Source: Thermodesulfobacteriota bacterium
GTDB lineage: Bacteria > Desulfobacterota_D > UBA1144 > Nemesobacterales > Nemesobacteraceae
Length of the DNA stretch: 64,000 nucleotides
Assembly: GCA_965202785.1 (NCBI GenBank)
Contig: OZ241855.1
Span: forward strand, 1,312,001-1,376,000
Direction: 5' to 3'
The position numbers were made by a program, and so were the translations under genes. The notes beneath the pieces were generated by a model. It made no database searches. It was given only the letters and a program-made list of their open reading frames with translations, and was not told the DNA's origin. This document shows positions 1-30,410 of this stretch, piece after piece. Numbering within the stretch: the first letter of the stretch is position 1; each line of letters begins with the position of its first letter.

Positions 1-1759
1 CGCCGGTTTCCATGCTGGGGGCATTCTGCCGCAGCCATGCACGTGAACGATCGTCAAGATCGATCTTCTCCTTGCTGGACATGCTTTTCACTGAGACCGT
101 TACGCGTGTTGATCTCCGGTCATGGTCGATCAGATTGTTAAGGTCGCGGCCTATCGGGAGAGAAAATTCGTAAAGCAAAAGGTACTGCGCGGCAAGTTCG
201 GGGTCGTCGGGAAGCGCGTAGTAATCCGGGTTATCGCCATGCAGGTTCTTGTTCAGACGCTTCATGATGTCGGCAATTGAGAAGATATGGACAAATTCCG
301 GTTGCTCCCGGTACCAATCTGCAAACGCTTCGACCTGTTTTAGGTATTCTATGTCCGTTACGGCGCCTTCACGGCCGGAATCGAGAGAGTACTCATAGGT
401 CTCCACGCCAGGGAAATTCTCGCTCAGAAAATCTGCGGATTGCCGGAACTCGTAACTCTCATCGAGAACCTCAAGCCAGTTCTCCCTGAGTTCGATTTTG
501 GAGATGCCGACAACCAGAAAGACAGTCAGAATGCCGGAGAAGCACAGAAGGATCGTACGATAGGAGATGACAAAACGGCTGAGACGATCGAAAAAATCCT
601 GTTTGTTTTCGGGCATCTTCCTGGGACGAATGGGTAATATTGACAGGAATGCGGGCAATAGGGTTACCGAAAAGACAAAAGCGCACATGGAACCGAACGC
701 CACGATGTTGCCCATGACCTTAAACGGCGGCATATCTACGAAATTCAGGCTCAGAAATCCGATTGCAGTTGTGAACGAGGTAAGGAAAATAGGCCACACG
801 TCCACTCGCACGGCATGGATTGCCGCTTCTGTTCTCGTCATGCCCTGGCGTAAGCCCCCGGCCATTGCCTCAATAATGTGCACGGAGTGAGCGACGGTCA
901 CAGCCATCAGTACAAACAGCGCTGCACCGCTTTCACCAAACAGCTTTGAGCCTGTCCACCCGGCAAAGCCCAGCGCGGATGTGATGACGGCAAAAATCAT
1001 CAGCACGATCGCAAGTGTTCCCCATATCGAACGTATCAGGACCAAGGCGACAAGCAGCATGGTTCCAAGAGCAATGGGCCCAAGGATGGCCGTTTCATCG
1101 TCAAGTGCGTCACCTATGACACGATTGAGAATGAGTTCACCTAAAAGATGGTAGTCGATGGATGTGTATTTCTCCCGGGCGTCGGCAGCAGTTTCATACA
1201 GATAGTCGGTAACTTCTCGCTTAGCCGTTTCCCGATTTTCATCAGGAAGCGCAATACTGACAACCAGACCTGCAACTCGTCCGTCACGGGAAAAGAATCT
1301 TCCGGCAATTTCCTCAGTATCGAATGCGATATCCCTGATTCGTTCTATATCGGCGTCGCTCAGGGAATCGGCTTCGTCGATAAGCGGCTCAACAACCAGC
1401 TCGTCTTCAAACCCCTCGCTATGCGTATAGTTTGAAATAGAATCGACGCGGGTGGCGTACGGGGTGCGCCAAAGCTGCTCAGTCAGCTCTTCAATGGCAA
1501 CAAGCGTTTCCCGTGTGAAAATGGTGCCGTTATGTGGCGCCATGGCAACCAACGCAACATCGGATAGTGCATATGTCTCTTCAAGCTGTTCGAGTGCAAC
1601 GAGGTGTGGGTCGGATTCATTAAAGTGATTATGAAAGTCTACATCCACCACAATCAAGCGCGTGGCTCCCGCGGCAAGGGCCAGCATAACAAGCAAAGAG
1701 ATCAAAATGGTCAGCCAGCGACGGGTGACGATCGTCGAGATACAGGGTTCCAAGTTCAT
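1..1759 (-). CDS. MMPL/RND-family lipid transporter, 3' end runs off the window
   Basis: Absent from the ORF track (no stop in window). Manual translation from ATG 1759: MNLEPCISTIVTRRWLTILISLLVML...PIFLTSFTTAIGFLSLNF...ELAAQYLLLYEFSLP...; collinear paralog of 23575-25956. Confidence 0.9.
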   Translation of the reverse strand, partial: MNLEPCISTIVTRRWLTILISLLVMLALAAGATRLIVVDVDFHNHFNESDPHLVALEQLEETYALSDVALVAMAPHNGTIFTRETLVAIEELTEQLWRTPYATRVDSISNYTHSEGFEDELVVEPLIDEADSLSDADIERIRDIAFDTEEIAGRFFSRDGRVAGLVVSIALPDENRETAKREVTDYLYETAADAREKYTSIDYHLLGELILNRVIGDALDDETAILGPIALGTMLLVALVLIRSIWGTLAIVLMIFAVITSALGFAGWTGSKLFGESGAALFVLMAVTVAHSVHIIEAMAGGLRQGMTRTEAAIHAVRVDVWPIFLTSFTTAIGFLSLNFVDMPPFKVMGNIVAFGSMCAFVFSVTLLPAFLSILPIRPRKMPENKQDFFDRLSRFVISYRTILLCFSGILTVFLVVGISKIELRENWLEVLDESYEFRQSADFLSENFPGVETYEYSLDSGREGAVTDIEYLKQVEAFADWYREQPEFVHIFSIADIMKRLNKNLHGDNPDYYALPDDPELAAQYLLLYEFSLPIGRDLNNLIDHDRRSTRVTVSVKSMSSKEKIDLDDRSRAWLRQNAPSMETG

Positions 1760-1873
1760 AAGATCATGCCGAATTATAAATATGTCTAGATTTCAGATCT
1801 GGCATTTCCTCTTCACTTTGCCACGTCGAACCCTGTTCACCTTTACAGTGCTATATTACTGAACACAGGAATA

Positions 1874-2332: not shown

Positions 2333-2380
2333 CCTACATATTGCACTAGGAAGATGCGGGTTCGAGTCCCGCCAACCGCT
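2333..2380 (+). pseudogene. tRNA-like 3' fragment (degenerate anticodon arm, intact T arm)
   Basis: GCGGG TTCGAGT CCCGC CAACCGCT at 2356-2380, preceded by CCTA...TTGCAC TAGG AAGAT. No matching 5' acceptor strand. Confidence 0.5.
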
Positions 2381-3399
2381 TATATGGTTTCTTCGAAAGA
2401 CTCCCCTGGATAGAACTGCTGATACCACTTGCGCATTTTGTTCAGAAGAACAACGTCATCTCCCTTGATCTCCGGAGGGAAGGATTTCTGGTAAATCTTC
2501 CTTTTCCATATCTCCATGTCCTGCTGGTATTGCCAGATCCAGTTCCTAACCACGAAGGAAGGAAGTATTCGCAGTACACGCCGGGGGGCGAACCACCGGA
2601 AATTCACTTGTTGCCGAAGCGCTTCAAGGGGAGTATGCGTCTGGAACATTATTATCTCACCGATTCTCGGAAGGTTGAACTCGAATTTTATAACGCTCCC
2701 GGGACCGAGAAGGGTAACCAGCACCTGGGACTTCACGCTCTCGTAAGCCCGGCCTTTTATCTTAAGCGTTGACTCGACTCTGAGATAGGCAACATGCTCA
2801 AGCGTGTCATCGAGAAACCACGACGGCTTGTGTCGAACTTTTAGCCAGGGCAGCTTTATGTTTATCCAGGGGATGATGCCGGTTCCGTGGATATGAAAGA
2901 AATGACTGAAATCTACGGTGTTCTCGGCAAATTCTATAATGTGCATTTCCGCATCCAGGCTGTACTGACCGCGGTGAACCAGCTGCCGGCTGTCGATCTT
3001 CGGCTCAGCCGGCAGCTGGTACGGCGGCTGCTTGCCTTGCGCTGAATGATAAATCATGACCATGCCGTAGTGCTCGATCACTTCCCAGTGCCGATGAACG
3101 AGCTCGGTGTAGGATGACGGATTGCAGACCCTGCCTTCTCCGTTCAGTTGCCACCCGTGAAAAGGACATTGCAGCAAGTCCCCCTTGACTTCACCATAGG
3201 CCAGGTTTGCTCCCAAGTGCGGGCAGAATGCGTCTAAAGCCGAAAGCCGGCCGGTTGTCCGGCTGCGAAACAGGGCGATTTGCTCCCCCAGGCATTGAAC
3301 ATGCTTTACTTTTCCCGGTTTGATTTCCCTGGATGCCGCTATCCTGTACCAGCCGTCTGGAAACGGCGGCGGGTAGGTCTGTTCTCTCGCTTTATCCAT
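2380..3399 (-). CDS. Rieske non-heme iron oxygenase, Neverland/DAF-36 cholesterol 7-desaturase / KshA-like
   Basis: PPPFPDGWY N-terminus; Rieske CPHLGA...CPFHGW; mononuclear iron motif ENTVDFSHFFHIH; C-terminal DMEIW and RKWYQQFY; RBS AAGGAG. Confidence 0.85.
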   Translation of the reverse strand: MDKAREQTYPPPFPDGWYRIAASREIKPGKVKHVQCLGEQIALFRSRTTGRLSALDAFCPHLGANLAYGEVKGDLLQCPFHGWQLNGEGRVCNPSSYTELVHRHWEVIEHYGMVMIYHSAQGKQPPYQLPAEPKIDSRQLVHRGQYSLDAEMHIIEFAENTVDFSHFFHIHGTGIIPWINIKLPWLKVRHKPSWFLDDTLEHVAYLRVESTLKIKGRAYESVKSQVLVTLLGPGSVIKFEFNLPRIGEIIMFQTHTPLEALRQQVNFRWFAPRRVLRILPSFVVRNWIWQYQQDMEIWKRKIYQKSFPPEIKGDDVVLLNKMRKWYQQFYPGESFEETI

Positions 3400-3433: not shown

Positions 3434-3893
3434 CATCTGCCTACCCCGCTTCCCTTGCGGGGCTTTCCCCCGACATAGGTTTCATCAGCTTCTACTATCC
3501 CTGCAGCAGTCCGGTTTCCTTCGTCTGTTCCGCCGCCATCTGGGCACGGATACGCTGTTGCATAAACCACGCTGTTTTCTGATTGAGTTCTAAATCACGG
3601 GCAAGCTGGCAACTGGACAGGCTTTTATTTGCGTTTACGATAAGCCCTATGGCGAGAAACCATTTCTGAAGGGGAATCTTTGTCTTTTCAAAGATAGTGC
3701 CGGAAAGTACATTGAAGCTTGACTTGCAATCGTGGCAGTTCCAACGGCCTATCCGGTTGCCGTCATGCTTACGGGCAACTTTGACGCTTCCACAGTGCGG
3801 GCAAGAGGGCGTGTCCTTAAACCGGATGTCCTCAAGGTGCTCTATGCAAGCTTCTTGGTCTGGGAACCTCTTGAAAATCTTGATTAAATTCAT
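3434..3893 (-). pseudogene. IS1595-family transposase, frameshifted and truncated
   Basis: Zn ribbon CPHCGS...CHDC, GTIFEKTKIPLQKWF and an HTH. In-frame stop at 3495, but the shifted frame continues IVEADETYVGGKPRKG (first DDE motif) and the rest is missing. Confidence 0.9.
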
Positions 3894-4587: not shown

Positions 4588-6813
4588 TTACAAAGAAGCA
4601 GTTGCCGAATCCTCGCCTTCTGTCCCCTCTTCTGAAGTATCAATTACTTGGTTAGCCTCGGGGTCAAGCGGCAAGACAACAATCATATCTGTATATTCGC
4701 CTTCCTCCGTTTCTACGCGAAACTCACCACCGTGCTGTCGTACTATGTCGTTGGACAGCGATAATCCCAGGCCTGTCCCTTTATCCGTGGGCTTTGTTGT
4801 ATAGAACGGATTAAAGATACGCTCCAATGCAGATTGGGGAATGCCGGTTCCATTGTCACGAACGTGCACCTCAATATGGTCATCGACCAACCGCGTACTC
4901 AAATTAAGCGTCGGTTGATAATCCTTCTTTGACGCATCGTCGGCAGCAGCCAGCATTTTTCGTTTTTCGTCCGCGGCATAGCAGGCATTGGTTACCAGAT
5001 TTAGGAAAACCCGGCCAATGTCTTGCGGTTGCACCGTGATCTCTCCTATATCCGGCGAATAGTCTTCTTGTATTTCCAGCTGGAAGTCAGAGTCGGCGGC
5101 ACGAGCACTGTGGAACGCAAGCAACGCATGCTCGTTAAGCAATATGTTGAGGTCAGTTGGTTGCCATTCCCCGCCACCACGACCCATCTTGAGCATGTCT
5201 GTTATAATTCGGTTCGCACGAGTTCCGTGCTCGTGGATGCGCTTCAAATTTCCTGTCAAATCCTCGGCTACTTCCTCTACCAACTCTGGATCGTATTCCT
5301 CTTTCGCGTCCCCGTTAGCCTCCATTTTGGCTACCTCTTCCAGCAGTTCTTCCAGCAGCTCTTGTGAAACCTCTGAGAAGTTCATGATGAAGTTCATTGG
5401 ATTCTTGATTTCGTGCGCGACCCCGGCTGTCAACTGGCCAAGCGCAGCAAGCTTCTCCCGCATCACGATCTGGTCCTGCGCCCGTTTCAACTCTTCGTTA
5501 GTATGAGCCAGTTCCTCGTTCTTTTCTTGCAGTTGGTTAGCGAGCGTTTCTACAAGATTAAGGCGCTGTACTTCCAGTGCGTTATATCGGAACACTTCAA
5601 GCGCCTTGGCTAATTGCGCGATTTCGTCATTACCTCTGGTGTCGACGGTTATTTCTAGGTTGCCATCAGCCATTTCTTGCATTTGACTCGATATCCTCTC
5701 CAGACGCCGAATCAGACGGCGTTGTACAAGCAGCCATCCCAACAAGATTCCACCGCTTATACTAGCGATATTGAAAGCCAGCAGGACCTTCGTGCTGGTA
5801 GCAGTTACTGCAGCCGCTTTGCTCGCCATCTCCCCTGCAGCCATGCTTGAATCATTTACAACACTTTCTACTCGCGCTACGATGTCAATTCCTAAGGCCT
5901 GGTTCTCGAGAAGTAGGGCGGATAATTCATCGTCAACTGCAAGTTCCCGACTGCGCAGGTCGAATCCGTTGTTTTCCCTTCTGCCGAATGAGATCAGGTC
6001 TTCGAAAATCCCGGACAGCTGGCCATGAAGGTCGCCTCCCTCCTGTTCGTATTTTTCAAGCGCATCAAGCGACCGGCTGGTGCTGCCGGCTGCGGCTTCA
6101 AACCGTTCTCGCAATGGCTGAAGCATGGCCGCCTCGGTCACTACAAACGTGGTTGCAAGCAGCTGCGAAGCGACTACAGCCGCTTCGCGGAGTTCAAACA
6201 AGCGACGATAGATCAGGAATTCCGGTTCGGAGAAATGAACCGAGCGGGGAGATCGTGTTGCATCAAGAGACCGGTGTCCGGTCATTAGATAGAACATCTG
6301 ATTGTCGATCTCGTTAATCATAATCGGCGTTATTTTACTTTGGATACCCTGAAGCTCGTCTCTAAGATTGAGACTGCTCTCGCGAAGGTCAAAACGTTCC
6401 CTGACAAGCAATTTGATTCGCTCAATGTTCTGGATTATGGCGACCCCGTCAGATTGAATCTGCCGCGCTTGTTCGCTTTCTCCTTGATTTTCCATCATTA
6501 CCGAGAGTTGTGTTTTAAATGCATCCGCCTGCAGGTCGACCGTTCTGGATACGGTCCTGAACTGCTCAGGCGTGCTCGCGGTGAGTCGGGGAGCGGCGGC
6601 TACGAGCATGGCTGTCTGCTGGGCAATTGCAAACGCCGATGTCATCTCGGGTATGTTCTTTTCATTAACGGTTTGCTGAACTTTGCCGATTTGCCTAAGG
6701 AAGAAAAGAGCCATCAAACTGACGATGATGATGAGTACTACAGCACCTGCGTAACTTATATAAAGTTGCGTAGAAATTTGCGTAGAAATTCGGTTCCAGA
6801 GTTTTGAAAACAT
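4588..6813 (-). CDS. Membrane sensor histidine kinase (helical periplasmic domain, HAMP, HisKA, HATPase)
   Basis: Two TM segments; HAMP DEIAQLA; H-box LTAGVAHEIKNP; N-box NLVTNA; DNGTGI; FYTTK; GTGLGL. Confidence 0.93.
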   Translation of the reverse strand: MFSKLWNRISTQISTQLYISYAGAVVLIIIVSLMALFFLRQIGKVQQTVNEKNIPEMTSAFAIAQQTAMLVAAAPRLTASTPEQFRTVSRTVDLQADAFKTQLSVMMENQGESEQARQIQSDGVAIIQNIERIKLLVRERFDLRESSLNLRDELQGIQSKITPIMINEIDNQMFYLMTGHRSLDATRSPRSVHFSEPEFLIYRRLFELREAAVVASQLLATTFVVTEAAMLQPLRERFEAAAGSTSRSLDALEKYEQEGGDLHGQLSGIFEDLISFGRRENNGFDLRSRELAVDDELSALLLENQALGIDIVARVESVVNDSSMAAGEMASKAAAVTATSTKVLLAFNIASISGGILLGWLLVQRRLIRRLERISSQMQEMADGNLEITVDTRGNDEIAQLAKALEVFRYNALEVQRLNLVETLANQLQEKNEELAHTNEELKRAQDQIVMREKLAALGQLTAGVAHEIKNPMNFIMNFSEVSQELLEELLEEVAKMEANGDAKEEYDPELVEEVAEDLTGNLKRIHEHGTRANRIITDMLKMGRGGGEWQPTDLNILLNEHALLAFHSARAADSDFQLEIQEDYSPDIGEITVQPQDIGRVFLNLVTNACYAADEKRKMLAAADDASKKDYQPTLNLSTRLVDDHIEVHVRDNGTGIPQSALERIFNPFYTTKPTDKGTGLGLSLSNDIVRQHGGEFRVETEEGEYTDMIVVLPLDPEANQVIDTSEEGTEGEDSATASL

Positions 6814-6853
6814 TCCGCTTATCTCAATGTCTTTTGCATATGCAAAACGTCCG

Positions 6854-8053
6854 TCAGTATCGTCGTGTTAGAGCCGTGAGAGGCGTATACTGGCCATCAG
6901 GACCAATAATCGTCAAGAACACGCTGTCTGAACCTTGATTATCATTCTTGCTATATCGCAAGGTGAAGCCGTCCAAATTAATGTCGTTGCCAGTCCGCAG
7001 CACCGCATCGATGCAATCACGGTTAACCTGGTTGCCGCAATTATCTACTACATAAATAGCCAAACGCCCTGCTAAATATCCTTCATACGATATAAATCCG
7101 GGTTTTGCCGCCGGATCGTACGCCCTGAGCGCAGCACGATAGGAAGCGGAAGCAGGCACCGTGTTTCCGGTTGGAAAAGGAACCACCTGCGTAACTAGAA
7201 CTCCGGCCCCTTGATCACCCAGTTCGCTTGCCAAGGCATTACTGCCTACGAAAGAAAGTGTCATAAAAATGGAATTCATACCGATGTGGCGTGCCCACTT
7301 GATAAATGTCGCAGTTGGCTTGTAGGGACCAATAATAATCACAGCTTCCGGTCCGGTAGCGTGCAAATCAACAAGTGCCGTTTTTATCGCGACGGTATTG
7401 CGAGGAAATATCCCTGTTCCGATAGCAGAAAGTTTGCGACGCTCAAGAGCAAGAAGTATCCCTTGCAACCCGGCGCGACCGAATGAATCATCCTGATGGA
7501 GAATGGCAATGCGATTAATTCCGAGATCAGTCGTCAATCGTTCTACCATCTCCTCGGTTTCTTGATAATACGAAGCCCGAAGATTGATTACTGTCCGGCG
7601 TGCGTTGTCACGCAGGAATTCTGCACCAGTCATAGGTGCTATGTAAGGTACATCGTGTTGCTCCGCGACAGGTACCGCAGCTTTGGAGGTAGGAGTGCCA
7701 ACTGCGCCGATGAGTGCGAAAACATTTTCACCAATCAGTCGCTGTGTATTTACAATTGCCGCTTCCGGTTCGTATGCGTCATCCATTGACTGCAGTTCCA
7801 GACGACGTCCGTTAATGCCACCCCGGTCATTAACCTCTTTAAACGCGGAAAGAATGCCGGCTTTCATGCCTTTACCAAGTTCGCCGGCCGGACCACTAAA
7901 GGCAGCGGACTGCCCAAACACAATACGATCACTGTATACGCCCGGCACAGTGTGTGTTTGTTGCTGGGCTTCCCCTGACGCTGCGGTTGCCAGTATTGCA
8001 ACTATTGAAGCGGCAACCACTTTTTTGAGAGACAGTCTGCTTAGTAACCGCAT
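6854..8053 (-). CDS. Periplasmic ligand-binding protein, Leu/Ile/Val (PBP1) type; no transporter genes nearby
   Basis: Signal peptide; GQSAAFSGPA; GGINGRRLEL; DDAYEP; LRASY. Confidence 0.88.
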   Translation of the reverse strand: MRLLSRLSLKKVVAASIVAILATAASGEAQQQTHTVPGVYSDRIVFGQSAAFSGPAGELGKGMKAGILSAFKEVNDRGGINGRRLELQSMDDAYEPEAAIVNTQRLIGENVFALIGAVGTPTSKAAVPVAEQHDVPYIAPMTGAEFLRDNARRTVINLRASYYQETEEMVERLTTDLGINRIAILHQDDSFGRAGLQGILLALERRKLSAIGTGIFPRNTVAIKTALVDLHATGPEAVIIIGPYKPTATFIKWARHIGMNSIFMTLSFVGSNALASELGDQGAGVLVTQVVPFPTGNTVPASASYRAALRAYDPAAKPGFISYEGYLAGRLAIYVVDNCGNQVNRDCIDAVLRTGNDINLDGFTLRYSKNDNQGSDSVFLTIIGPDGQYTPLTALTRRY

Positions 8054-8056
8054 TTG

Positions 8057-9649: not shown

Positions 9650-10074
9650 TTAGAACCTACCTTGCCATTTAGGGCCTAAATTAATTACTAAATCAGTAAT
9701 TATATACCTGATTACACGAAGCTATGTATAGGGAATCATGTACTTGATTCGGCAAAACATCTGTGTCGAACACTAACAAGTCCACGGAAACCACAGTTGT
9801 TTTACGGCAACCGCATTAGGGAGAACTTCCGTAAAGGCATTTCCTTCATCAAACTGTTCCAGTTCAAAATCTTTATACTCTTTGCCCATAGTGGCATATT
9901 CTGCTGTTGTTTGTTTGGCGAATCCAGATCAGCCGGATGCGGCGCTTTTTTTCAAAACCTCCGCATACCAGGTTTGAATATAATTCTTGTGGTTGGTATT
10001 CTACATAGCGTTGCCCGAACTGGTGTACGACCGTTCGGTTCTATTGCAGATGCCAATTACTCTGGAATAGTTAA

Positions 10075-17179: not shown

Positions 17180-18319
17180 ATGATTGAATGGCTTGGTATT
17201 AGCCACCTTTTTGAGCTTTCCCAGAGGGAAGCGATTGCGGGGTTTTTCACCCCGCTGGTGATTTTTGCCGTGTTTTTCCTGGCGCAGATTATACTGCCTG
17301 GAAGATGGGTTCCTGGCTACGTCATCAATCCGGAGACCGGCGAGCCCCGCAAGTATAGGCTGAACGGTCTTTTGGTATTCGCGGTTGCGCTGATCGTGTG
17401 GGCTTTCGAGCTTACCGGCATGCCGCGTGAGTGGTTCTACCGGTCCTCGATCTATGCCGTGGTTGGCGGAACAGTTTTTACCACAATCTTTGCGATCATA
17501 GCGGTCTTCAGTCAGCCGCAAGGCAAGATAAAGAACCCGCTTCTGGCGCTTTGGGACGGGCGGGCGCAGGAGATGTCGTTCTTCAACGAGCGCTTCGATG
17601 TGAAGATGTATTTCTATGTTGTCGGCGGGACGATGCTGGCGCTCAACGCCTTGTCCGGAGCCGCATACAACTATGAACTCTTTGGCGAGAACTACAATCC
17701 GGGCGTTTTCCTGTATGCGGCATTCTACACATACTACATACTGGATTACTTTATCTTTGAGCGCGTCCAGCTATATACCTACGATCTGATCCATGAGGGC
17801 ATCGGCTTCAAAATGTTCTGGGGAGGCCTCGTGATCTACGGGTGGCTGTTTATCCTCCCGTTGTGGGGCATGGCTGCTTACCCGTCTCCCGGATTCTCGT
17901 CGGCGTGGACGTATGTCTGGCTAATCGGAACGCCTGTGCTGTTCCTGTTCGGGTGGGGCATCTCGCGCGGCGCTAACATGCAGAAATACACATTCAAGCG
18001 ATGGCCCGACCGCAAATTTCTCGGGATCATCGAGCCTGAGTACATCCAGGCCGGCGACCGCAAGATCCTGTGCAGTGGCTTCTGGGGTGCCGCTCGCCAC
18101 TTCAACTACCTGGGCGAAGGCTTCCTTGGTCTTTCAATTGCCCTGGCATTCGGCTACTTCACTAATCTCTGGGCGTGGACCTACTTTATCTTCGTCGTAA
18201 CGTTTTTTACCTTCCGTCAACGTTTTGACGATGCATACTGTGCCGAGAAATACGGCGCCGAAAAGTGGGCGGAGTATCAGGCACGGGTGAAATACCGGAT
18301 TTTTCCCGGCATTTATTGA
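17180..18319 (+). CDS. ERG4/ERG24-family membrane sterol reductase (Delta14, Delta7 or Delta24(28) type)
   Basis: Multiple TM helices; family signatures LCSGFWGAARHFNYLGE and DDAYCAEKYG...WAEYQARVKYRIFPGIY; N-terminal YRLNG. Confidence 0.9.
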   Translation: MIEWLGISHLFELSQREAIAGFFTPLVIFAVFFLAQIILPGRWVPGYVINPETGEPRKYRLNGLLVFAVALIVWAFELTGMPREWFYRSSIYAVVGGTVFTTIFAIIAVFSQPQGKIKNPLLALWDGRAQEMSFFNERFDVKMYFYVVGGTMLALNALSGAAYNYELFGENYNPGVFLYAAFYTYYILDYFIFERVQLYTYDLIHEGIGFKMFWGGLVIYGWLFILPLWGMAAYPSPGFSSAWTYVWLIGTPVLFLFGWGISRGANMQKYTFKRWPDRKFLGIIEPEYIQAGDRKILCSGFWGAARHFNYLGEGFLGLSIALAFGYFTNLWAWTYFIFVVTFFTFRQRFDDAYCAEKYGAEKWAEYQARVKYRIFPGIY

Positions 18320-18403: not shown

Positions 18404-19405
18404 TCAACCCGGTTTGCGCGCCTTGTGGTAGTACATGGGCGTAACAATTCCCAGACGTCCTGCGGCCAGGAGGCTGTCGGCCACGACATTAATAATTTTC
18501 CGTGCCTCGGACGACCCCTTGGGTACGGCGCGCACGCCTTCCAGAACGGGCAGAACCGCCGCGGCGATTTTGCGGCCAAGGGCCGTTCTCGAGAAACTTC
18601 TCAGATTCAGGCTGCCCCCTTCCAGCGGTCCATACCACGGCGTCTTGGGGTCGGCGTCAAGAGCGCGGTCATGCGCCTCGACAAGTTCGAAACCGACTGC
18701 CCGCAGACTGTCGTCTACCTCCGTGAATGAAGCGATTTCCGGAAGAGCGGAGACGTATTCGTTTATTTCCTTGAGTTCCCGGTGCTTGGGGTTTCCGCCG
18801 TCGTAAAGCGGGGTCGTGCACACGTCGTAGCCGACGAAGACCGCACCGGGGCGCAATACGCGGAATATCTCGGCAAAGGCTGCGGTCTTATCCGGCGCAT
18901 GACACAAGGCCTCGATATGGTAGGCCGCGTCGAAACTTCCGTCTTCCGCCGGTATATTCAGGAAATCGCCGTGCAGGACGCTGCAGAGATCGTCCAGGCC
19001 AGCCTCGCTGTTATACGCAGAGCACTTCCCGAGCTGATATTTGTTGATGTTGAGGCCCACGATTGAAGCGCCGAACTTTCTTGCGAGGGAGCGCTGGGGT
19101 CCACCCACGCCGCACCCGACATCCAGCACCTTCATACCCGGTCTCAATCCAATGGCTTCGCCCAGAAAATACTCATGGTTGGCAATGGATTCCTCGAAAG
19201 ACACCCCCGGCTCCATCAGTGCGAAGTGAATCGACTGTCCCCATCCACGCTCGCAAAATTCGGTAATGAGATTATAAAACGCCGTTACCGTGTTGGCGTA
19301 CTCTTCCTTGCTCATCCCCTGGCTTCTGCGGTACTTCGATAGCCTTTCCACAATATCATCCCGCTGAACTGCATTTGAAGCTGAGTTATGGGAGTCATCT
19401 GCCAC
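18404..19405 (-). CDS. Sterol 24-C-methyltransferase (ERG6/SMT family), variant active site
   Basis: SAM motif VLDVGCGVGGP; Region I FCERGWGQSIHFA; Region III IEALCHAP; C-terminal GIVTPMY. Confidence 0.9.
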   Translation of the reverse strand: MADDSHNSASNAVQRDDIVERLSKYRRSQGMSKEEYANTVTAFYNLITEFCERGWGQSIHFALMEPGVSFEESIANHEYFLGEAIGLRPGMKVLDVGCGVGGPQRSLARKFGASIVGLNINKYQLGKCSAYNSEAGLDDLCSVLHGDFLNIPAEDGSFDAAYHIEALCHAPDKTAAFAEIFRVLRPGAVFVGYDVCTTPLYDGGNPKHRELKEINEYVSALPEIASFTEVDDSLRAVGFELVEAHDRALDADPKTPWYGPLEGGSLNLRSFSRTALGRKIAAAVLPVLEGVRAVPKGSSEARKIINVVADSLLAAGRLGIVTPMYYHKARKPG

Positions 19406-19636: not shown

Positions 19637-20998
19637 TTGCGCACTAGCATCATGTTATCTGAAAAGACCCAGCGCCGAATTCTCAAAAATCCGTTCACCG
19701 CACCCGGTGGGGGCGGCAAGAGCGTTCCGGCTTCACTTCTCCCAGCGATTTTAGCGGTGGTGCTGTGGGTGCTTGTTTCAGTGCTCCCGACCGTAGCGTA
19801 CCCGGCCGGCTTCACCGACGAGGTTGATATCTCCGGGCGCCTCTCGACTGAGGCTTGGCTGTATCCCCAGAGTGCCGAGTATCCTGACCAGCGTTCATAT
19901 GCTGGCGGGCTTGCACTTGAGACAACGTTCTATGTTGAGAGCGAGGAAGGCACAAGCATAACGGTGACTCCCTTTTTGCGGTACGATGCCGGGGACCCGG
20001 ACCGCACGTACGGTGATTTCCGTGAGGCCTATCTGCTTATGTACGGCGATATTGGCAACGGCGAATGGGAATTGCGTCTGGGCATCGATCGGGTCTTTTG
20101 GGGCGTCACGGAACTGCGTTCCCTGGTGGATATCATCAATCAGACCGATGTTATTGAACACCCGAACGAAAAGATAAAGATGGGTCAGCCAATGGCCCAT
20201 CTCACCTGGTCGGGTGACTGGGGAGCACTGGAATTTTTCGCGACGACATGGCACCGTGCGCGCACCTATCCGGGCCCGCGTGGTCGCCAGCGGTATGAGT
20301 TCATTGTGGACCAGGATATGGTTTCATACGAATCCGGCGCGAAAAAGTGGAATATTGATCTTGCCAGCAGGTACAGCGGCTTATTAGGGCCGCTCGAGAT
20401 TGGTCTCAGCGTGTTCAACGGTACGAACCGAGAGCCCACACTCTTGCCGATATTTCTCGACTCCAGATTGGTTCTGGCCCCACATTACGAGAAGATTCGC
20501 CAATTCGGTGTGGATGCCCAGCTTACAAGGGGGTCCCTGCTGCTCAAGCTGGAAGCAATCTACCGCGCTGGCGCGAGGAACAGCAGGTACATTCAACACC
20601 TCAATACTTTAGAGGAAGAGGACTACACGGCTTTTATCTTGGGTAGCGAGTACACGCTCTATTCCATATTGGGTTCGAACTCTGATCTGGTCCTGTTTGC
20701 CGAATGGGCTTACGACGGACGTGGCCGGTGGGCAACCAATGCATTCGAGAACGACCTGTTCATTGCCGCGCGTCTCGGGTTGAACGATCCGCATGGCACC
20801 GAATTTGTCATCAGCGTTTTAGGTTCCCTCAACAAGAGCAGTCGCGTCCTCGCAGGCGAGTTCAAACGTCGCCTTTCTTCGGACAACTGGCTTCTGCATA
20901 TTGAGACCTCAGCTTTTCTGGATATTGACGAAGACGACTTCATATACTACGTGCGGCGCGACAGCTACGTAAAGATCAATCTAGCCTACAGTTTCTGA
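19637..20998 (+). CDS. Putative outer-membrane beta-barrel protein, partner of the LolA-like and MMPL proteins; start uncertain
   Basis: Signal-like N-terminus; amphipathic beta strands; C-terminal YVKINLAYSF ending in Phe (BAM signal); FREAY, RVFWG and LVDIINQ motifs. Confidence 0.7.
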   Translation: MRTSIMLSEKTQRRILKNPFTAPGGGGKSVPASLLPAILAVVLWVLVSVLPTVAYPAGFTDEVDISGRLSTEAWLYPQSAEYPDQRSYAGGLALETTFYVESEEGTSITVTPFLRYDAGDPDRTYGDFREAYLLMYGDIGNGEWELRLGIDRVFWGVTELRSLVDIINQTDVIEHPNEKIKMGQPMAHLTWSGDWGALEFFATTWHRARTYPGPRGRQRYEFIVDQDMVSYESGAKKWNIDLASRYSGLLGPLEIGLSVFNGTNREPTLLPIFLDSRLVLAPHYEKIRQFGVDAQLTRGSLLLKLEAIYRAGARNSRYIQHLNTLEEEDYTAFILGSEYTLYSILGSNSDLVLFAEWAYDGRGRWATNAFENDLFIAARLGLNDPHGTEFVISVLGSLNKSSRVLAGEFKRRLSSDNWLLHIETSAFLDIDEDDFIYYVRRDSYVKINLAYSF

Positions 20999-21272
20999 AT
21001 CGAACCAGAACCTGAAAGCAACTCGACAGTGACTTTTTAGTACTTGCCTTGTCAGAGTTGCCGAGACGCGAAACGTGGGTCAATTGAGGCGGTGTCCGAA
21101 TACGGATTGAGGTTTTTCATGAGAGTGGCAGGAAATATGTTGTCATAGGGCGGAACGGTTCTGTCTATGTGTGGTCTGCTTTGTCAGGTAAATAATCACG
21201 TAAAGATGCGCAAGTGATACCGGCAATTTTATCCGGACTATCGGGCCAATGACTTGGCCGAGGGAAACACGA

Positions 21273-22274
21273 ATGGCGGCTAACTTCCATAACCCAATTT
21301 CGAAAGCAATTCGGCCGGAGGACACGGCGGAGACGCTGTCGAAGTACCGCAGAAGCCAGGGCCGGGGCAAGAAAGAGTACGCTCGCATGGTGACGGCGTT
21401 TTACGACCTCGTTACCGACTTTTATGAGTATGGATGGGGACAGTCGTTTCACTTCGCACCGATGAAGGTAGGGGAGTCTTTCGAGGAATCCATTGTCGGC
21501 CACGAGCATTTTCTCGGCGAAGCCATTGGATTGAGACCGGGTATGAAGGTGCTGGATGTCGGATGCGGCGTGGGAGGACCCCAGCGCTACCTCGCAAGAA
21601 AGTTCGGCGCTTCGATCGTGGGCCTAAACATCAGCGAATATCAGATCGGGAAGTGCTCTGCGTATAACAGCAAGGCTGGCCTGGACGATCTCTGCGGCGT
21701 CCTGCACGGCGATTTCCTGAATATACCGGCGGAAGACGGAAGCTTCGACGCGGCCTACCATATCGAGGCCATGCCTCATGCGCCCGATAAAGCCGCCGCC
21801 TATGCCGAGATATTCCGCGTATTGCGCCCCGGTGGGGTCTTCGCCGGCTACGACTGGTGCATGACCCCGCTTTACGACGGCGCAAACCCTGAGCATCGGG
21901 AACTCAAGAAAGGAATCGAATATGGCAACGCTCTTCCCGAAATCGCCTCATTCACGGAGGTAGACGACAGTCTGCGGGCAGTCGGTTTCGAACTTGTCGA
22001 GGCGCATGACCGCGCTCTTGACGCCGACCCCAAGACGCCGTGGTATCGACCGCTGGAAGGGGGCAGTCTGAAGCTGAGGAGTTTGCCGAGAACGGCCCTT
22101 GGCCGCAAAATTACCTCGGTAACCCTGAGCGTTCTGGAAAGCTTACGCGCCGTACCCAAGGGGTCGTCCGAGGTACGGAAAATTCTCAGTATCGCGGCCG
22201 ACAGTTGCGTGGCCGCAGGACGTCTTGGGATTTTTACGCCCATGTACTACCACAAGGCGCGCAAACCGGATTGA
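21273..22274 (+). CDS. Sterol 24-C-methyltransferase (ERG6/SMT family), canonical Region I
   Basis: FYDLVTDFYEYGWGQSFHFA; VLDVGCGVGGP; IEAMPHAP; GYDWC; IEYGNALP; GIFTPMY. Start 21273 gives 333 aa, equal to its paralog. Confidence 0.95.
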   Translation: MAANFHNPISKAIRPEDTAETLSKYRRSQGRGKKEYARMVTAFYDLVTDFYEYGWGQSFHFAPMKVGESFEESIVGHEHFLGEAIGLRPGMKVLDVGCGVGGPQRYLARKFGASIVGLNISEYQIGKCSAYNSKAGLDDLCGVLHGDFLNIPAEDGSFDAAYHIEAMPHAPDKAAAYAEIFRVLRPGGVFAGYDWCMTPLYDGANPEHRELKKGIEYGNALPEIASFTEVDDSLRAVGFELVEAHDRALDADPKTPWYRPLEGGSLKLRSLPRTALGRKITSVTLSVLESLRAVPKGSSEVRKILSIAADSCVAAGRLGIFTPMYYHKARKPD

Positions 22275-22531: not shown

Positions 22532-23353
22532 ATGATTCGGTCTTCGATCCCACGCATAATACTTACGGTCCTCGGAAGCTTTCTTGCAATTTGTTTCTGG
22601 CCGGCTGAGTCGTATTCTGATCTGCTGAGTGGTACCGCTGAGGAAGTGGGTCTCAAGGTTGCAACCGAAGCTCGTGAGAACCAGAAGGGTTTCGGCAATT
22701 TCACCGCAAACCTGACCATGACGCTACGTAACAAGCAGGGGAAGGAAACCCAGCGCTCACTCCGTCTCAAACTCATCGAAATCCCGGAGGACGGCGATCG
22801 AACTCTGTTTGTGTTTGACCACCCAAAGGATGTCAAAGGGACCGCTTTTCTCGTCCATGCCCATAAGGAGGGGCCAGACCAACAGTGGCTCTATCTTCCC
22901 GCACTGAAGCGGGTGAAAGGCATCAGCGCCTCGAAACAATCCGGCTCTTTCATGGGCAGCGAATTCTCCTATGAGGACATGGGAGCGGTCGAGGTCGGGA
23001 AATTTACTCACCGGTTCCTTCGTGAAGAGCCCTGCGGTGATCTCAAGTGCCTGGTTCTGGAGCGTATCCCGAAAAGTCAGGATTCCGGGTACTCACGCCA
23101 AGTGGTTTGGCTCGACCGGGAGGAACTTCGAACAATTCAGGTCCACTACTTCGACCGCAGGAATGAGCACCTCAAGACTATGGTCGTAGAGGGCTATGCA
23201 AAATACCTCGATCGGTTTTGGCGGAGCAGCACTATAACGATGACAAACCTGCTGACTGGCAAGAGTACCGTGCTGCTATGGTCAGACTACAAGTTTGGGA
23301 CTGACCTGGACACCAAGGACTTTACCCGAACAGCGCTAAAGCGAATACGGTAG
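22532..23353 (+). CDS. Outer membrane lipoprotein-sorting (LolA-like) periplasmic protein
   Basis: Signal peptide; PKDVKGTAFL; QWLYLPALKRVK; SFMGSEFSYEDM; RBS AGGAGG. Confidence 0.88.
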   Translation: MIRSSIPRIILTVLGSFLAICFWPAESYSDLLSGTAEEVGLKVATEARENQKGFGNFTANLTMTLRNKQGKETQRSLRLKLIEIPEDGDRTLFVFDHPKDVKGTAFLVHAHKEGPDQQWLYLPALKRVKGISASKQSGSFMGSEFSYEDMGAVEVGKFTHRFLREEPCGDLKCLVLERIPKSQDSGYSRQVVWLDREELRTIQVHYFDRRNEHLKTMVVEGYAKYLDRFWRSSTITMTNLLTGKSTVLLWSDYKFGTDLDTKDFTRTALKRIR

Positions 23354-23574
23354 AGAGGTTTCTAGACTGCCTCGCCCGGTTCACCACCCGCCGGAGTGAC
23401 TGCAACTGAAATTGGGTGAGTATACTACGCAACGAACGGAGAGCTTCCGTAAGTTGGATTGATCAAGCCCATGAAAAACGGCGGAATACCGATGTCCTCG
23501 AACACTCCTACAACCCATGACCCAGAAAGTGGGGATGTGTCCCTTAGTCTTGAGCGCAAGCCAAATTCCCTGTT

Positions 23575-25956
23575 TTGGCAATAATGAAATTGCTGAGTGA
23601 TATAGAGTCACGGTTGGGCAACTGGGTCATCAAGCTTCGGTGGCCGATCATCGTTGCTGCCATTGTCTTAACCGGGATTGCAACAAGCGGCACGTTGTTG
23701 CTTGAGTTCTCAACCGACCACCGCGTCTACTTTTCCGAAAACAATCCTCAGCTTCTGGCGTACCAGGAGATGGAGGACATGTACGGCAAGAGCGACAACG
23801 TCTTTTTTGCCATCGTGCCGGAGGACCGAGATGCCACATCGTCTCTCGCCCTTGAAGCTACGGAGTGGCTCACCGAAAAGGCTTGGCAGACCCCATTCGC
23901 AAGCCGTGTCGATTCCGTTACCAACTTTCAGCATACCAAAGCCGACGGCGATGAGGTATTGGTGCGTGAACTGGTGGACGAGAGTGCCTACAGCGATGCC
24001 GAAGAGCGGTCACGGATTCGCGAAATTGCCTTGGCGGAACCGGTTCTCGCGGGGCGCCTGCTGGCACGCGACGGCGGTGTTTCGGGAATCAACGTCACAT
24101 TGCAGTTGCCGGGCGAGGACCAAATGCGCGAAGGTGCAGAGGTTGCTGAACACTCACGCAAACTTGCGAATGAATTTCGAGAACGTTTCCCCGGCATTGA
24201 CGTACTGTTGTCTGGAATGGTGATTTTTAACCAGGCCTTTATGGAGGTGTCTCTGGACGATCTTAGGACGCTCATCCCGGTGAGTTTCTTGGCAATGGCG
24301 TTCATGCTGCTGCTTCTGACGCGGGGATTTTCAGGAACGTTCGCAATAATGCTCGTCGTGGTGATGTCGGTAATGACCGCCGTGGGTCTCGGGGGCTGGG
24401 CAGGACTTCCAATGACGTCGCCTTCGGCGGTCTCCCCGGTCGTCGTGCTGACAGTGGCTATTGCCAACTGCGTCCACATCTATTCCACCATTGTCAGCTA
24501 TATGCACGATGCAGCGTCCGGCACGTCTGAGGATCGCGGCAGCAGAACTAGGCAGGATGCGATTGTCGAGTCGATTCGGGTGAACCTTCAGCCGGTCTTC
24601 CTGTCGAGTCTGACTACCACGCTTGGCTTTTTGAGCTTGAACTTCTCCGATTCGCCCCCTTTTCGTCATTTGGGCATCTTCGTTGCATTTGGGGTCGGTG
24701 CGGCATTCGTGCTTTCCGTAACTTTTCTGCCGGCGTTGCTCTCGCTGCTGCCGGTTCGGGTACGCGCATCCCTGTCCCGAGAGAATTCTCTGATAGAAAT
24801 GTTCGGCAGGTTCGTTGTACGCCGAAGCCGCCAACTGCTCTGGGGCTCCGGGCTGATCGTGGTAGTGCTCGTGGCGTCAATTTTCCAGAACGAGCTAAAC
24901 GACGTTTTCCTCCACTATTTTGACGAGAGCGTCGAATTCCGAAAAGACTCTGAATTCATCGTGGATAACCTCACCGGTTTGTATGCCATGGAGTACTCGC
25001 TCCCATCGCGCTCCCCGGGTGGGATCAGCGACCCGGCGTATCTCTCAGATGTCGAAGCGTTTGCCGAGTGGTACAGGGGGCAGCCTGAAACGATACACGT
25101 AAACGTCATCACCGATACCTTCCGACGGCTAAACAAGAGCATGAACGGGGGCGATCCGGACTATTACCGGCTACCCACAGACCGGGAACTTGCCGCGCAG
25201 TATCTGCTTCTCTACGAAATCTCTCTACCCTATGGCCTTGATCTGAACAACCAGATCGCCGTCGACAAGTCAGCCACCCGGATGATAGTGAGAACGCGGA
25301 CGCTCTCTTCAAACGAAGTGATCGCACTTGATCAGCGCGCGCAGCAATGGCTCGCAGGCCACGGGCCGAATATTTCCGGTCCGGTGAGTGCCGGTACCAC
25401 GTTGATGTTTGCCAATCTCGGTCGGCGAAATATCATCTCCATGCTTGCTGGAACCACGCTCGCCCTCGTTGGAATTTCTTTCATCCTCATCTTCGCACTG
25501 CGATCATGGCGACTCGGAATAACGAGCATGGTCCCAAACCTGATTCCCGGGGCATTGGGCTTCGGTATATGGGGTTTGACAGTCGGAGAAGTGGGAGTAT
25601 CACTTTCGATGGTAACGGCCATGACATTGGGTATCGTGGTCGACGATACTGTCCACTTTCTCAGCAGGTACAAGCGGAACCGGCACGAACTCGGTTGCAC
25701 TTCTCCTGAAGCGGTACTGGTTTCCTTCCGAACCGTGGGTCAGGCACTGCTTACGACCTCGCTTGTGCTAGTGGCAGGCTTTGTTGTGGTGAGTTTTTCC
25801 AATTTCGAACTCAATTCAGCGATGGGCAAGCTCACAGCGCTTGTAATCACTTTGGCCCTGATGGCCGATTTCCTTCTCCTGCCGCCGCTTCTCATGAAGT
25901 TCGACGCGAATGCTGACGGCGCCTGCCTTCTTTCGGAAATGGTAACCAAGGCGTGA
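23575..25956 (+). CDS. MMPL/RND-family lipid transporter
   Basis: Two repeats of TM-periplasmic loop-5TM; PVFLSSLTTTLGFLSL; GIVVDDTVHF. Start may be ATG 23584. Confidence 0.92.
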   Translation: MAIMKLLSDIESRLGNWVIKLRWPIIVAAIVLTGIATSGTLLLEFSTDHRVYFSENNPQLLAYQEMEDMYGKSDNVFFAIVPEDRDATSSLALEATEWLTEKAWQTPFASRVDSVTNFQHTKADGDEVLVRELVDESAYSDAEERSRIREIALAEPVLAGRLLARDGGVSGINVTLQLPGEDQMREGAEVAEHSRKLANEFRERFPGIDVLLSGMVIFNQAFMEVSLDDLRTLIPVSFLAMAFMLLLLTRGFSGTFAIMLVVVMSVMTAVGLGGWAGLPMTSPSAVSPVVVLTVAIANCVHIYSTIVSYMHDAASGTSEDRGSRTRQDAIVESIRVNLQPVFLSSLTTTLGFLSLNFSDSPPFRHLGIFVAFGVGAAFVLSVTFLPALLSLLPVRVRASLSRENSLIEMFGRFVVRRSRQLLWGSGLIVVVLVASIFQNELNDVFLHYFDESVEFRKDSEFIVDNLTGLYAMEYSLPSRSPGGISDPAYLSDVEAFAEWYRGQPETIHVNVITDTFRRLNKSMNGGDPDYYRLPTDRELAAQYLLLYEISLPYGLDLNNQIAVDKSATRMIVRTRTLSSNEVIALDQRAQQWLAGHGPNISGPVSAGTTLMFANLGRRNIISMLAGTTLALVGISFILIFALRSWRLGITSMVPNLIPGALGFGIWGLTVGEVGVSLSMVTAMTLGIVVDDTVHFLSRYKRNRHELGCTSPEAVLVSFRTVGQALLTTSLVLVAGFVVVSFSNFELNSAMGKLTALVITLALMADFLLLPPLLMKFDANADGACLLSEMVTKA

Positions 25957-30408: not shown

Positions 30409-30410
30409 CA

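Follow-up and report, generated by a model that had tools for sequence, protein, structure and literature searches.

A sterol-gene island without a cyclase in a sponge-associated Dadabacteria-type bacterium: evidence pointing to the tailoring of exogenous sterols

The first 25,956 positions of a 64,000-nucleotide stretch of bacterial DNA (positions 1,312,001 to 1,376,000 of the forward strand of contig OZ241855.1, assembly GCA_965202785.1; hereafter the window) carry an island of genes for sterol methyltransferases (SMTs), an ERG4/ERG24-family sterol reductase, a Rieske oxygenase, an amine-oxidase-family flavoprotein, two fusions of a GPP34 domain to a cytochrome P450, and putative transport and sensing proteins. 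We think it probable that this island is a trimmed derivative of a horizontally moving sterol cluster, and that with it a bacterium having no cyclase tailors exogenous sterols which come from its sponge or from cyclase-bearing co-symbionts. Of this reading, the part in which a bacterium without a cyclase tailors exogenous sterols has good support from the absence of the early pathway, from synteny, and from relics of early genes.

A cluster of sterol genes in a genome without a cyclase

The source organism is a genome-reduced bacterium with a sponge association. Among public loci, the nearest bear titles of Candidatus Dadabacteria or Thermodesulfobacteriota metagenome-assembled genomes (MAGs), and many have isolate labels resembling those of sponge MAGs; most sequencing runs in which the stretch occurs carry the label 'sponge metagenome'. 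The genome to which the window belongs is a single contig of 1,643,464 bases with a completeness rating of 95.97%. Gene identities were taken from an open reading frame (ORF) listing and Pfam profiles, and PDB and NCBIfam comparisons were made for selected proteins. Every gene type that the initial annotation of this DNA had named for positions 1-25956 was found (Table 1), in the case of the outer-membrane barrel through a sub-threshold DUF1302 match and Foldseek matches to porins, and the 17 listed island ORFs of the window are all open. The sterol genes continue upstream of the window start with a third SMT (SMT_3), two more Rieske oxygenases (Rieske_2 and Rieske_3), a second ERG4/24 gene (ERG4b), and a gene for a short-chain dehydrogenase/reductase (SDR) resembling 3beta-hydroxysteroid dehydrogenase (3beta-HSD). 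The full set of two P450, two ERG4/24, three SMT, and three KshA_C-Rieske genes of the genome is confined to about 73 kb of 1.64 Mb, and this clustering is not due to chance.

No cyclase, epoxidase, or CYP51 gene was found in the 64-kb window, as had been noted initially for the island, and none was found in the whole genome either. Whole-genome profile searches gave 0 matches for SQHop_cyclase_C, SQHop_cyclase_N, SE, SQS_PSY, and EBP, and for FA_hydroxylase one sub-threshold match of 33 residues only. The only PF00067 proteins of the genome are the two fusion P450s, and CYP51 was not found. Since a single-contig genome that is about 96% complete has no squalene synthase, epoxidase, or cyclase, the sterol substrate must come from outside. 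The cyclase was also not found in any of 120 species genomes of the phylum, drawn from 32 genera, nor in any of 10 related chromosomes that carry the island. The suggestion of the initial annotation that the substrate is exogenous is thus borne out by the lack of a de novo route in this genome and of a cyclase in the phylum. Its further suggestion that host or dietary sterols are the source holds only as to an origin outside the cell and not as to the host specifically, co-resident bacteria being another possible source.

Synteny across phyla and relics of early genes

That these island genes are sterol-pathway genes is supported by the company their homologs keep in another phylum, where they lie beside an epoxidase-cyclase fusion, CYP51, and homologs of SdmA and SdmB. 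In the Binatia locus L178 the gene order is Rieske, GPP34-P450, ERG24-type reductase, CYP51, epoxidase-cyclase fusion, a 243-aa EXPERA-like membrane protein, two SMTs, the SdmA homolog (412 bits in NCBIfam, full length), the SdmB homolog (303 bits), the flavoprotein, a second GPP34-P450, and Rieske_3. The fusion protein has about 1,100-1,200 residues and matches Pfam SE and both cyclase domains. Since the early steps in L178 have candidates, elimination leaves for the late steps, as candidates, the fusion P450s and Rieske oxygenases together with the flavoprotein and ERG4a, the reductase of the window; they could account for desaturation in the ring and in the side chain and for reduction of Delta7 or Delta24(28). 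The set that is left unassigned in L178 is the set that this genome has kept.

Squalene epoxidase (SE) and oxidosqualene/squalene cyclase form a single fused protein at L178:~6350-9745 (Binatia) and at L180:15559-19128 (Nitrospirales), with ORFs of 1189-1269 aa, that in L178 being probably some 140 codons too long at its 5' end; long frames like the fusion were seen in 5 more genomes. The genome under study (G000) also encodes, at G000:C1:780100-780834 on the minus strand, a 244-aa multi-pass membrane protein that is 60% identical to the 243-aa protein encoded after the fusion in L178. It gives weak EXPERA/EBP leads (Pfam EBP E=0.06; 22 of 30 atlas matches in clusters that carry EBP, for example, in 20% of the members of the best cluster) and may be a divergent sterol Delta8-Delta7 isomerase.

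The association is not confined to one locus. For the comparison with other phyla 20 loci were fetched around GPP34-P450 genes and homologs were sought within 10 kb. A Rieske_3 homolog (53-66% identical) was found in 16 of the 20, an SMT in 12, and the flavoprotein (70-82% identical) in 11, while ERG4b, the barrel plus the LolA-like gene, and an MMPL gene were found in 4 loci each. At least one of Rieske_3, SMT, flavoprotein, and ERG4b is present in 18 loci, where the island neighbourhood thus recurs in part, and in the remaining 2 a cyclase gene adjoins the GPP34-P450. The identity to other-phylum copies is 78-85% for ERG4a and 70-82% for the flavoprotein, whereas the control, RpoN of the window, is only 34-41% identical to its counterparts in the same 24 genomes (17 of the 24 with a match). 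These figures suggest horizontal movement of the sterol cluster between phyla of sponge symbionts.

In the genome collection 445 relatives of ERG4a were found, of which the best 80 share 78-97% identity with it and represent about 10 phyla. In a quick maximum-likelihood tree these are arranged in a star-like manner on short branches, with the relatives of this genome in one clade (17 rows, SH-aLRT 95), and 19 changes of label are needed against a minimum of 9. A full-length GPP34-P450 is present in 22 of the 24 ERG4a-bearing other-phylum genomes examined. Conserved neighbours of ERG4a itself were looked for in other phyla and none were found; beyond the 15 closest Dadabacteria-type loci, 63 of 65 have no other sterol-island gene within 10 kb of ERG4a.

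Within the genus, remains of the early genes were found. In this genome an sdmA fragment lies at G000:C1:1288713-1289166, about 23 kb upstream of the window start and directly upstream of ERG4b. It corresponds only to residues 212-361 of the 362-aa SdmA homolog, that is, the C-terminal 150, and is spread over two frames, and an identical pattern was found in the relatives G007 and G010. Fragments of CYP51 (residues 358-458) and of ERG4b are present in G002. An intact CYP51 gene stands after ERG4b in G011 (L196:10674-12050) and in G010 (L198:2016-3389), and no cyclase follows it; that of G011 codes for 459 aa with an AGQHTS I-helix, a YEFTVPIFGRGVAYD loop, and the haem loop FGGGKHRCMG. These relics of sdmA, CYP51, and ERG4b argue that the genus descends from a recipient of a fuller cluster and has been losing the early part stepwise. 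Since there is no cyclase in the 120 genomes of the phylum, the fuller cluster would have been acquired horizontally and not inherited vertically, and a phylum-level remnant of an ancestral Dadabacteria pathway was rejected on this ground. A relic of the cyclase itself was not found. A 278-aa antisense ORF in L178 was rejected as such a relic because tblastx and six-frame translation show CYP51 on the other strand, and what looked in G010 and G011 like an N-terminal piece of the SE-cyclase gene was rejected in the same manner, the conserved frame being that of CYP51 on the other strand.

The initial annotation had been prepared to give up its reading if the genes did not occur together in relatives, and they do. 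The island neighbourhood recurs in 16 loci of relatives. Of the 120 phylum genomes, 25 have ERG4_ERG24 matches, and all 25 belong to this genus. Among its 35 other genomes, 24 have ERG4a and 26 have the LolA-like gene, which is present in all 24 with ERG4a and absent from 9 of the 11 without, so that 9 genomes have neither. Since members of one genus are not independent, we read this pattern as that of one block that is either present or absent. Of 24 genomes of the genus sampled for SMTs, a close one is present in 15, a class at 40-50% identity alone in 3, and none at all in 6. In G020, two copies of a segment with SMT, ERG4a, and LolA-like genes (C1:88528-93645 and C1:2234073-2239190) lie about 2.1 Mb apart on one contig, and there is an in-frame TGA in each SMT copy. 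With a contamination rating of 6% for this genome, the duplication may stem from the assembly.

Enzymes, transport proteins, and neighbouring genes of the island

Both SMTs of the window have the domain pair that defines this class, a S-adenosylmethionine methyltransferase domain together with Sterol_MT_C (cut-off 21.7 bits). SMT_1 and SMT_2 are 78% identical, and SMT_3, which adjoins Rieske_2 outside the window, is 93% identical to SMT_2. Region I of SMT_2 has the canonical FYEYGWG, in which YEYGWG is what we take to be the sterol-binding Region I motif of SMTs, and SMT_2 and SMT_3 share the stretch FYEYGWGQSFHF. SMT_1 is deviant and has FCERGWG (FCERGWGQSIHF), with Cys and Arg in place of the two tyrosines, and this variant is kept in the loci of 11 relatives. 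In its accessible text, a 2025 preprint of Brown and Welander refers to SMT positions Y81 and F83 and reports that glycine at position 249 (yeast numbering) is required, though not in itself enough, for propylation. By an offset of +168 from the Y81 equivalent, which holds for the yeast and the Chlamydiae SMT in that preprint, the equivalent of position 249 is Asn227 in SMT_2, Asn in SMT_3, and Ser in SMT_1, a count made without a reference alignment and in which an indel is possible. Provisionally, C28/C29 products are predicted rather than C30, and on the same offset count the C30 products that the initial annotation had included are not expected, since Asn or Ser and not Gly is present at the propylation position.

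The best PDB match of ERG4a is the Delta14-sterol reductase 4quv (115 bits over residues 28-379). ERG4b is a canonical member of the family (230 bits) and is 73% identical to the ERG24-type reductase of L178. The 3beta-HSD-like SDR lies just upstream of the window, adjoins Rieske_3, and has a DUF2867 domain. Its identity with SdmB was rejected because it scores 40 bits with NF052578 against a cut-off of 600, and a tblastn search of the genome with the SdmB homolog of L178 gave as best match only a 31% identical epimerase elsewhere.

Rieske_1 has the domains of a KshA/Neverland-type oxygenase and KshA is its best PDB match (105 bits). It may attack a sterol at C-7, as Neverland does, at C-9, as KshA does, or at another position, and the C-7 assignment suggested by the initial annotation is not supported. 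It is 67% identical to its paralog Rieske_2, and an atlas search returned generic Rieske clusters with, as a lead only, a 'cholesterol 7-desaturase family' cluster at rank 9. The identity of these proteins with SdmA was rejected, since Rieske_1, Rieske_2, and Rieske_3 score 59, 59, and 33 bits with NF052579, all in the Rieske domain only, against a cut-off of 600. The nearest solved relative of the flavoprotein (FlavoAO) is LkcE in PDB (82 bits). Its homologs at 79% identity or more fill at least 120 protein clusters that are named generically ('FAD-dependent oxidoreductase') or are nameless, and FlavoAO recurs as a core member of the cross-phylum sterol cluster.

The two GPP34-P450 fusions have 672 aa each and are 93% identical. 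They differ at 44 residues. The GPP34 domain, 226 residues long, accounts for 35 of these and the P450 domain for 9, and the divergence of the copies is thus concentrated in the presumed binding domain. Close relatives have a single copy (12279 is joined to 14733 in their contigs), and the tandem duplication is lineage-specific. The GPP34 plus P450 architecture is found in 120 of 120 homologous protein clusters listed, which are 64-95% identical. The N-terminus is acidic with no visible signal peptide. The P450 domain has the haem cysteine loop and EXXR but its I-helix is without the acid-alcohol pair: FAGHHTSSG of the Cytochrome P450 51 chain 6mi0_A aligns to LASMYLGDG here, and all 24 of 24 aligned fusion paralogs read A-S-x-Y-L-G-D/S with no threonine and no CYP51 signature. 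The identity with CYP51 was rejected because the AG(Q/H)HTS signature is missing and the best CYP51 match reaches only about 70 bits. On this alignment the fusion P450 is best classed as a family of its own with an atypical I-helix. A role as sterol C-22 desaturase of the CYP61/CYP710 kind, which the initial annotation had brought in, is not supported; what speaks for it is that the P450 adjoins an ERG4-family reductase. In this genome, in L177, and in L178 the fusion adjoins an ERG4/24-family reductase.

Among the putative transport genes, MMPL_A is cut by the window edge and its full gene (G000:C1:1311429-1313759) codes for 776 aa. MMPL_A and MMPL_B are 39% identical, and MMPL_B scores 139 bits as HAE3 and 81 bits as HpnN in NCBIfam, both below cut-off. 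Homologs of MMPL_A (49-56%) adjoin the GPP34-P450 in the 4 other-phylum loci that have one, and homologs of the barrel protein (52-54%) adjoin LolA-like genes in 4 loci. In the barrel protein the N-terminal segment is hydrophobic and the last residues are ...AYSF. An AlphaFold model of it, built on an alignment of 10 sequences, is all-beta but of low confidence (mean pLDDT 58), and the best Foldseek matches are outer-membrane porins (E ~1e-8, TM 0.4-0.5). The histidine kinase is kept in the island in 13 of the 15 closest Dadabacteria-type loci (76-96%), and the Peripla_BP_6 protein, which is syntenic in relatives, is probably the ligand sensor for this kinase. Of the sensing function proposed initially, the genes are there; their link to the sterol island is not sustained, as they are neighbours only in this genus.

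Table 1. Features of the island in the window, with the profile matches on which they rest
Feature	Position	Strand	Evidence
MMPL_A, MMPL-family resistance-nodulation-division (RND) pump with sterol-sensing-domain match	2..1759	-	Pfam MMPL 73 bits, Sterol-sensing 23 bits
Rieske_1, Rieske [2Fe-2S] + KshA_C non-haem-iron oxygenase	2380..3399	-	Pfam Rieske 72 bits, KshA_C 68 bits
IS1595-type transposase zinc-ribbon fragment	3495..3893	-	Pfam Zn_ribbon_IS1595 41 bits; at one border of the inverted histidine kinase-to-P450 segment
HAMP sensor histidine kinase	4588..6813	-	Pfam HATPase_c, HAMP, HisKA
Periplasmic binding protein Peripla_BP_6	6854..8053	-	Pfam 178 bits
RsbW-like anti-sigma serine kinase	8057..8491	-	Pfam HATPase_c_2 93 bits
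Response-regulator receiver + SpoIIE/PP2C phosphatase fusion (partner-switching output)	8492..9649	-	Pfam SpoIIE 191 bits, Response_reg 86 bits
TPR protein, 263 aa, conserved in island	10075..10866	+	Weak Pfam TPR matches; PDB: generic TPR only
FlavoAO, amine-oxidase-family flavoprotein	10908..12302	-	Pfam Amino_oxidase 53 bits
GPP34-P450 fusion, copy 1	12436..14454	-	Pfam GPP34 87 bits, p450 133 bits
GPP34-P450 fusion, copy 2	14810..16828	-	Pfam GPP34 90 bits, p450 132 bits
ERG4a, divergent ERG4/ERG24-family sterol reductase	17180..18319	+	Pfam ERG4_ERG24 110 bits, cut-off 27
SMT_1, sterol methyltransferase	18404..19405	-	Pfam Sterol_MT_C 53 bits, Methyltransf_11 76 bits
Porin-like outer-membrane beta-barrel, 453 aa, distantly DUF1302-like	19637..20998	+	Pfam DUF1302 19.8 bits, below cut-off 23.2
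SMT_2, sterol methyltransferase	21249..22274	+	Pfam Sterol_MT_C 70 bits, Methyltransf_11 76 bits
LolA-like periplasmic lipid carrier	22532..23353	+	Pfam LolA_like 201 bits
MMPL_B, HAE3-type RND pump with sterol-sensing-domain match	23575..25956	+	Pfam MMPL 101 bits, Sterol-sensing 38 bits

Two gene orders occur among relatives and differ by an inversion of the kinase-to-P450 segment. In L189, a locus from another phylum, a homolog of the TPR protein (44%) is flanked by a GPP34-P450 gene and an MMPL gene. Directly after the island, at 26073-27241 of the window on the minus strand, there are two small ORFs, one with a weak match to a TbpB beta-barrel lobe (22.5 bits, below cut-off) and the other without a family; no homologs of either were detected in the loci of relatives at the thresholds used. 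A beta-oxidation set of four genes (acyl-CoA dehydrogenase, 3-hydroxyacyl-CoA dehydrogenase, enoyl-CoA hydratase, and thiolase) follows at 27551-31601 on the plus strand, and the acyl-CoA dehydrogenase keeps its position in relatives at 91-95% identity. Together with this operon the window from 26 to 64 kb carries housekeeping genes, among them those for GlnRS, PurU, a TonB receptor, and rpoN. Contigs of relatives, mostly less than 95% alike to the window, are present in 3 RNA libraries of 3 studies and span the kinase, the genes from the binding protein through to the phosphatase, the flavoprotein, the P450, ERG4a, SMT_1, and the barrel, which is a weak hint that the island genes of relatives are transcribed.

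Proposed role, alternatives, and comparison with known systems

The role that we propose for the island is as follows. In the genus, the genes for squalene synthesis, the epoxidase-cyclase fusion, C-4 demethylation, and in most species C-14 demethylation are lost or ruined, whereas the late genes persist, some of them in duplicate. Movement of sterol between the outer membrane, the periplasm, and the inner membrane, in one direction or the other, would be the task of the porin-like barrel, the LolA-like carrier, and both MMPL pumps with their sterol-sensing domains. At the inner membrane the SMTs would alkylate C-24, SMT_2 and SMT_3 as canonical enzymes and SMT_1 as a conserved variant. ERG4a would reduce a double bond, most likely Delta24(28) or a ring bond, and the Rieske/KshA_C oxygenases, the flavoprotein, and the GPP34-P450 fusions would do the remaining desaturation, oxidation, or reduction, with the GPP34 domain holding a soluble P450 at the sterol-bearing membrane. 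In this scheme the gene identities, the missing early pathway, the synteny across phyla, and the relics are shown by the data, and the substrates, the regiochemistry, the direction of transport, and any role of the kinase and the partner-switching proteins are what we infer.

Several observations weigh against the proposal that the island tailors exogenous sterols in this way. A complete eukaryote-like steroid pathway has been claimed in Dadabacteria, according to the accessible text of Hoshino and Gaucher 2021 (PMC8237579). No such complete pathway was seen in the 120 genomes searched here, and the Dadabacteria genomes meant in that paper may have since been reclassified or may be mis-binned. 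NAD_binding_1, found in reductases of the FNR/KshB type, has 0 matches in the genome, which leaves without explanation how the three Rieske oxygenases and the two P450s receive their electrons; no KshB-type partner was found and a reductase of another type may be the donor. The fusion P450, being without the conserved I-helix threonine, may be no ordinary monooxygenase. The contig that is named in the Brown and Welander preprint for a propylating SMT is not among the 80 loci listed, and no identity with SMTs tested in print was obtained. The transporters are linked to the sterol genes by synteny and co-occurrence, in which members of the same genus are not independent and the island was possibly gained or lost as a block. 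HAE3/MMPL pumps, moreover, usually export. Homologs of the kinase, the binding protein, the RsbW-like protein, and the phosphatase are absent from all 20 other-phylum loci. Lastly, the RNA evidence consists of assembled contigs only, so DNA carry-over is possible in it, and the parts not covered do not mean silence.

The alternative that lies closest is that the substrates are sterol intermediates of co-resident cyclase-bearing sponge bacteria and not end products of the host, the pathway being split between bacterial species. Two species of the genus keep an intact CYP51 and an ERG24-type reductase without a cyclase, which makes sense only with 14-methyl sterols from outside, and genomes of Binatia, Nitrospirales, and others with isolate labels resembling those of sponge MAGs carry the complete cluster with the SE-cyclase fusion; the EXPERA-like gene of this genome, with its resemblance to the gene adjoining that fusion, points the same way. 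However, the EXPERA assignment is weak, and in this genome, where CYP51 is lost and the SdmA homolog is only a fragment, only 4,14-desmethyl sterols would be usable, and these the sponge also supplies. We therefore regard this alternative as rather unlikely, though it deserves to be kept in mind. It is improbable, in our judgement, that the GPP34-P450 fusions are host-directed effectors which bind phosphatidylinositol 4-phosphate (PI4P) and block phagosome maturation, the sterol-gene setting being incidental or serving that end. PMC11706023 reports the fusion, GPP34_L, as exclusive to sponge symbionts and proposes PI4P binding and evasion of the phagosome, and the clustering of copy differences in the GPP34 domain is as expected for a domain that faces a variable target. 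But the fusion stands beside sterol genes in relatives and in 18 of the 20 loci of other phyla, it adjoins an ERG4/24-family reductase here and in L177 and L178, its N-terminus is acidic with no visible signal peptide, and a P450 requires haem, O2, and a redox partner. Moreover, the word 'sterol' occurs 0 times in PMC11706023, and so the effector proposal was made without weighing the sterol context.

That the island no longer works and is the leftover of a formerly full pathway, now being lost, would agree with the remains of sdmA, CYP51, and ERG4b that persist as pseudogenes in the genus, with the lack of the island in about 9 of its 35 other genomes, and with the insertion sequence fragment within the island. 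Yet its ORFs are open, the orthologs are 85-97% identical across at least 24 species, the P450 and SMT duplications are recent, conservation across phyla is far above that of the housekeeping gene RpoN, and contigs of relatives are present in RNA libraries, which together make decay a very unlikely explanation. We give hardly any credence to sterol catabolism, that is, uptake followed by breakdown of the ring or the side chain for carbon. Three KshA-family Rieske oxygenases, the beta-oxidation operon after the island, and the uptake-type MMPL and LolA-like genes could be taken in its favour. However, the genome has only two full-length FAD_binding_2 proteins (578 and 533 aa) and among them no spare KstD candidate, a KshB-type reductase domain was not found in it, the SMTs and ERG4/24 reductases are anabolic, and the same genes lie within a de novo biosynthetic cluster of another phylum.

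What the locus chiefly offers is a connection of GPP34-P450 with sterol clusters and a picture in which members of the sponge holobiont share out a sterol pathway among themselves. Two families that are conserved across sponge-symbiont phyla, the GPP34-P450 fusion and the unnamed flavoprotein (about 80% identical across phyla), gain a testable biochemical role, and neither is tied to sterols in the literature found. The fusion occurs in most sponge-symbiont phyla and has so far been read as a phagosome-evasion factor; a sterol-modifying role would come instead or besides. The graded relics in one genus form a natural series for a symbiont becoming dependent on the sterols of others. More tentatively, and with somewhat less than even confidence, we suggest that the sterol diversity of sponges arises in part from a pathway split between organisms, in which the host and cyclase-bearing symbionts provide the sterol cores and cyclase-less symbionts such as these Dadabacteria import, alkylate, reduce, oxidise, and pass on sterols, and that GPP34-P450 is a membrane-tethered sterol P450 of a new family and not, or not only, an effector. 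Side-chain-alkylated steranes are fossil evidence for early sponges and algae, and their use depends on knowing the makers of the precursors. Since a cyclase-less bacterium keeps, duplicates, and shares genes for sterol tailoring and transport, a missing cyclase does not exclude a genome as a source of alkylated sterols.

Parts of this combination are in print, namely, bacterial SMTs, steroid clusters in sponge MAGs, and the GPP34-P450 fusion, and the initial claim that no such locus was known has to be narrowed accordingly. Searches of the literature, supplements apart, found no connection between Dadabacteria, sterols, and sponges and no link of GPP34-P450 to sterol clusters, although Fig. 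S11 of PMC11706023 may show P450 neighbours. GPP34_L as described in the accessible text of that paper has the architecture of both 672-aa proteins here and was counted, on our reading of the unlabelled columns of a table, in 56% of 16 sponge Dadabacteria genomes. It was read there as a means of phagosome evasion, whereas here and in most of the other-phylum loci it sits among sterol genes. Kelly et al. 2022 (PMC9531527) described steroid gene clusters in Ircinia MAGs of 10 phyla, with ERG24, CYP51, and LSS flanked by SMT or FDFT1, under purifying selection and with transfer, and read them as de novo synthesis; Dadabacteria has 0 occurrences in its accessible text. As far as described there, those clusters share with the present one the habitat labels, the enzyme families, and the signature of horizontal transfer with purifying selection, and L178 likewise has an ERG24-type reductase, CYP51, and a cyclase side by side. 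They differ in having a cyclase, whereas this genome is without cyclase, CYP51, and squalene synthase and has only late or unassigned enzymes together with transport genes.

Bacterial SMTs have been described in uncultured and symbiotic bacteria, among them a pathway-less Chlamydiae MAG that may methylate sterols acquired from its host (Brown et al. 2023, PMC10070321). In the accessible part of that paper the SMTs have the same pair of Methyltransf_11 and Sterol_MT_C and there are several per contig; unlike these, the SMTs here sit in a multi-enzyme island linked to transporters, although its supplements (Supplementary Data 1, Table 4) may list similar contigs. In Methylococcus capsulatus, BstA, BstB, and BstC move self-made sterol outward, according to the accessible text of PMC10942540. 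As in that system and in the case of the hopanoid pump HpnN, an MMPL-family RND pump lies here beside sterol-modifying genes, and a periplasmic carrier and an outer-membrane part are implied. Only the MMPL family is shared with BstABC as described there, however, since the carrier is LolA-like, the binding protein is Peripla_BP_6 and not Phosphonate-bd, and the outer part is a porin-like barrel; the TPR protein gave no sequence match to BstC, only generic TPR matches, and MMPL_B scores as HAE3 and below the cut-offs for HpnN. The Bst proteins, moreover, export the cell's own sterol, whereas here sterol must first enter.

Sterol reductases are reportedly present in intracellular bacteria that make no sterol, namely, the Delta24 reductase of Coxiella and that of Legionella drancourtii. 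Such reductases have also been found in sponge chlamydiae, as stated in the accessible text of PMC9666466. In these cases, so far as the sources available describe them, there is likewise an ERG4/24-family enzyme in a cyclase-less, host-associated bacterium, and it is thought to act on host sterol. However, they concern one or two genes, whereas the bacterium described here has a conserved island of at least 10 genes, with putative functions in alkylation, oxidation, and transport, together with relics of a full pathway.

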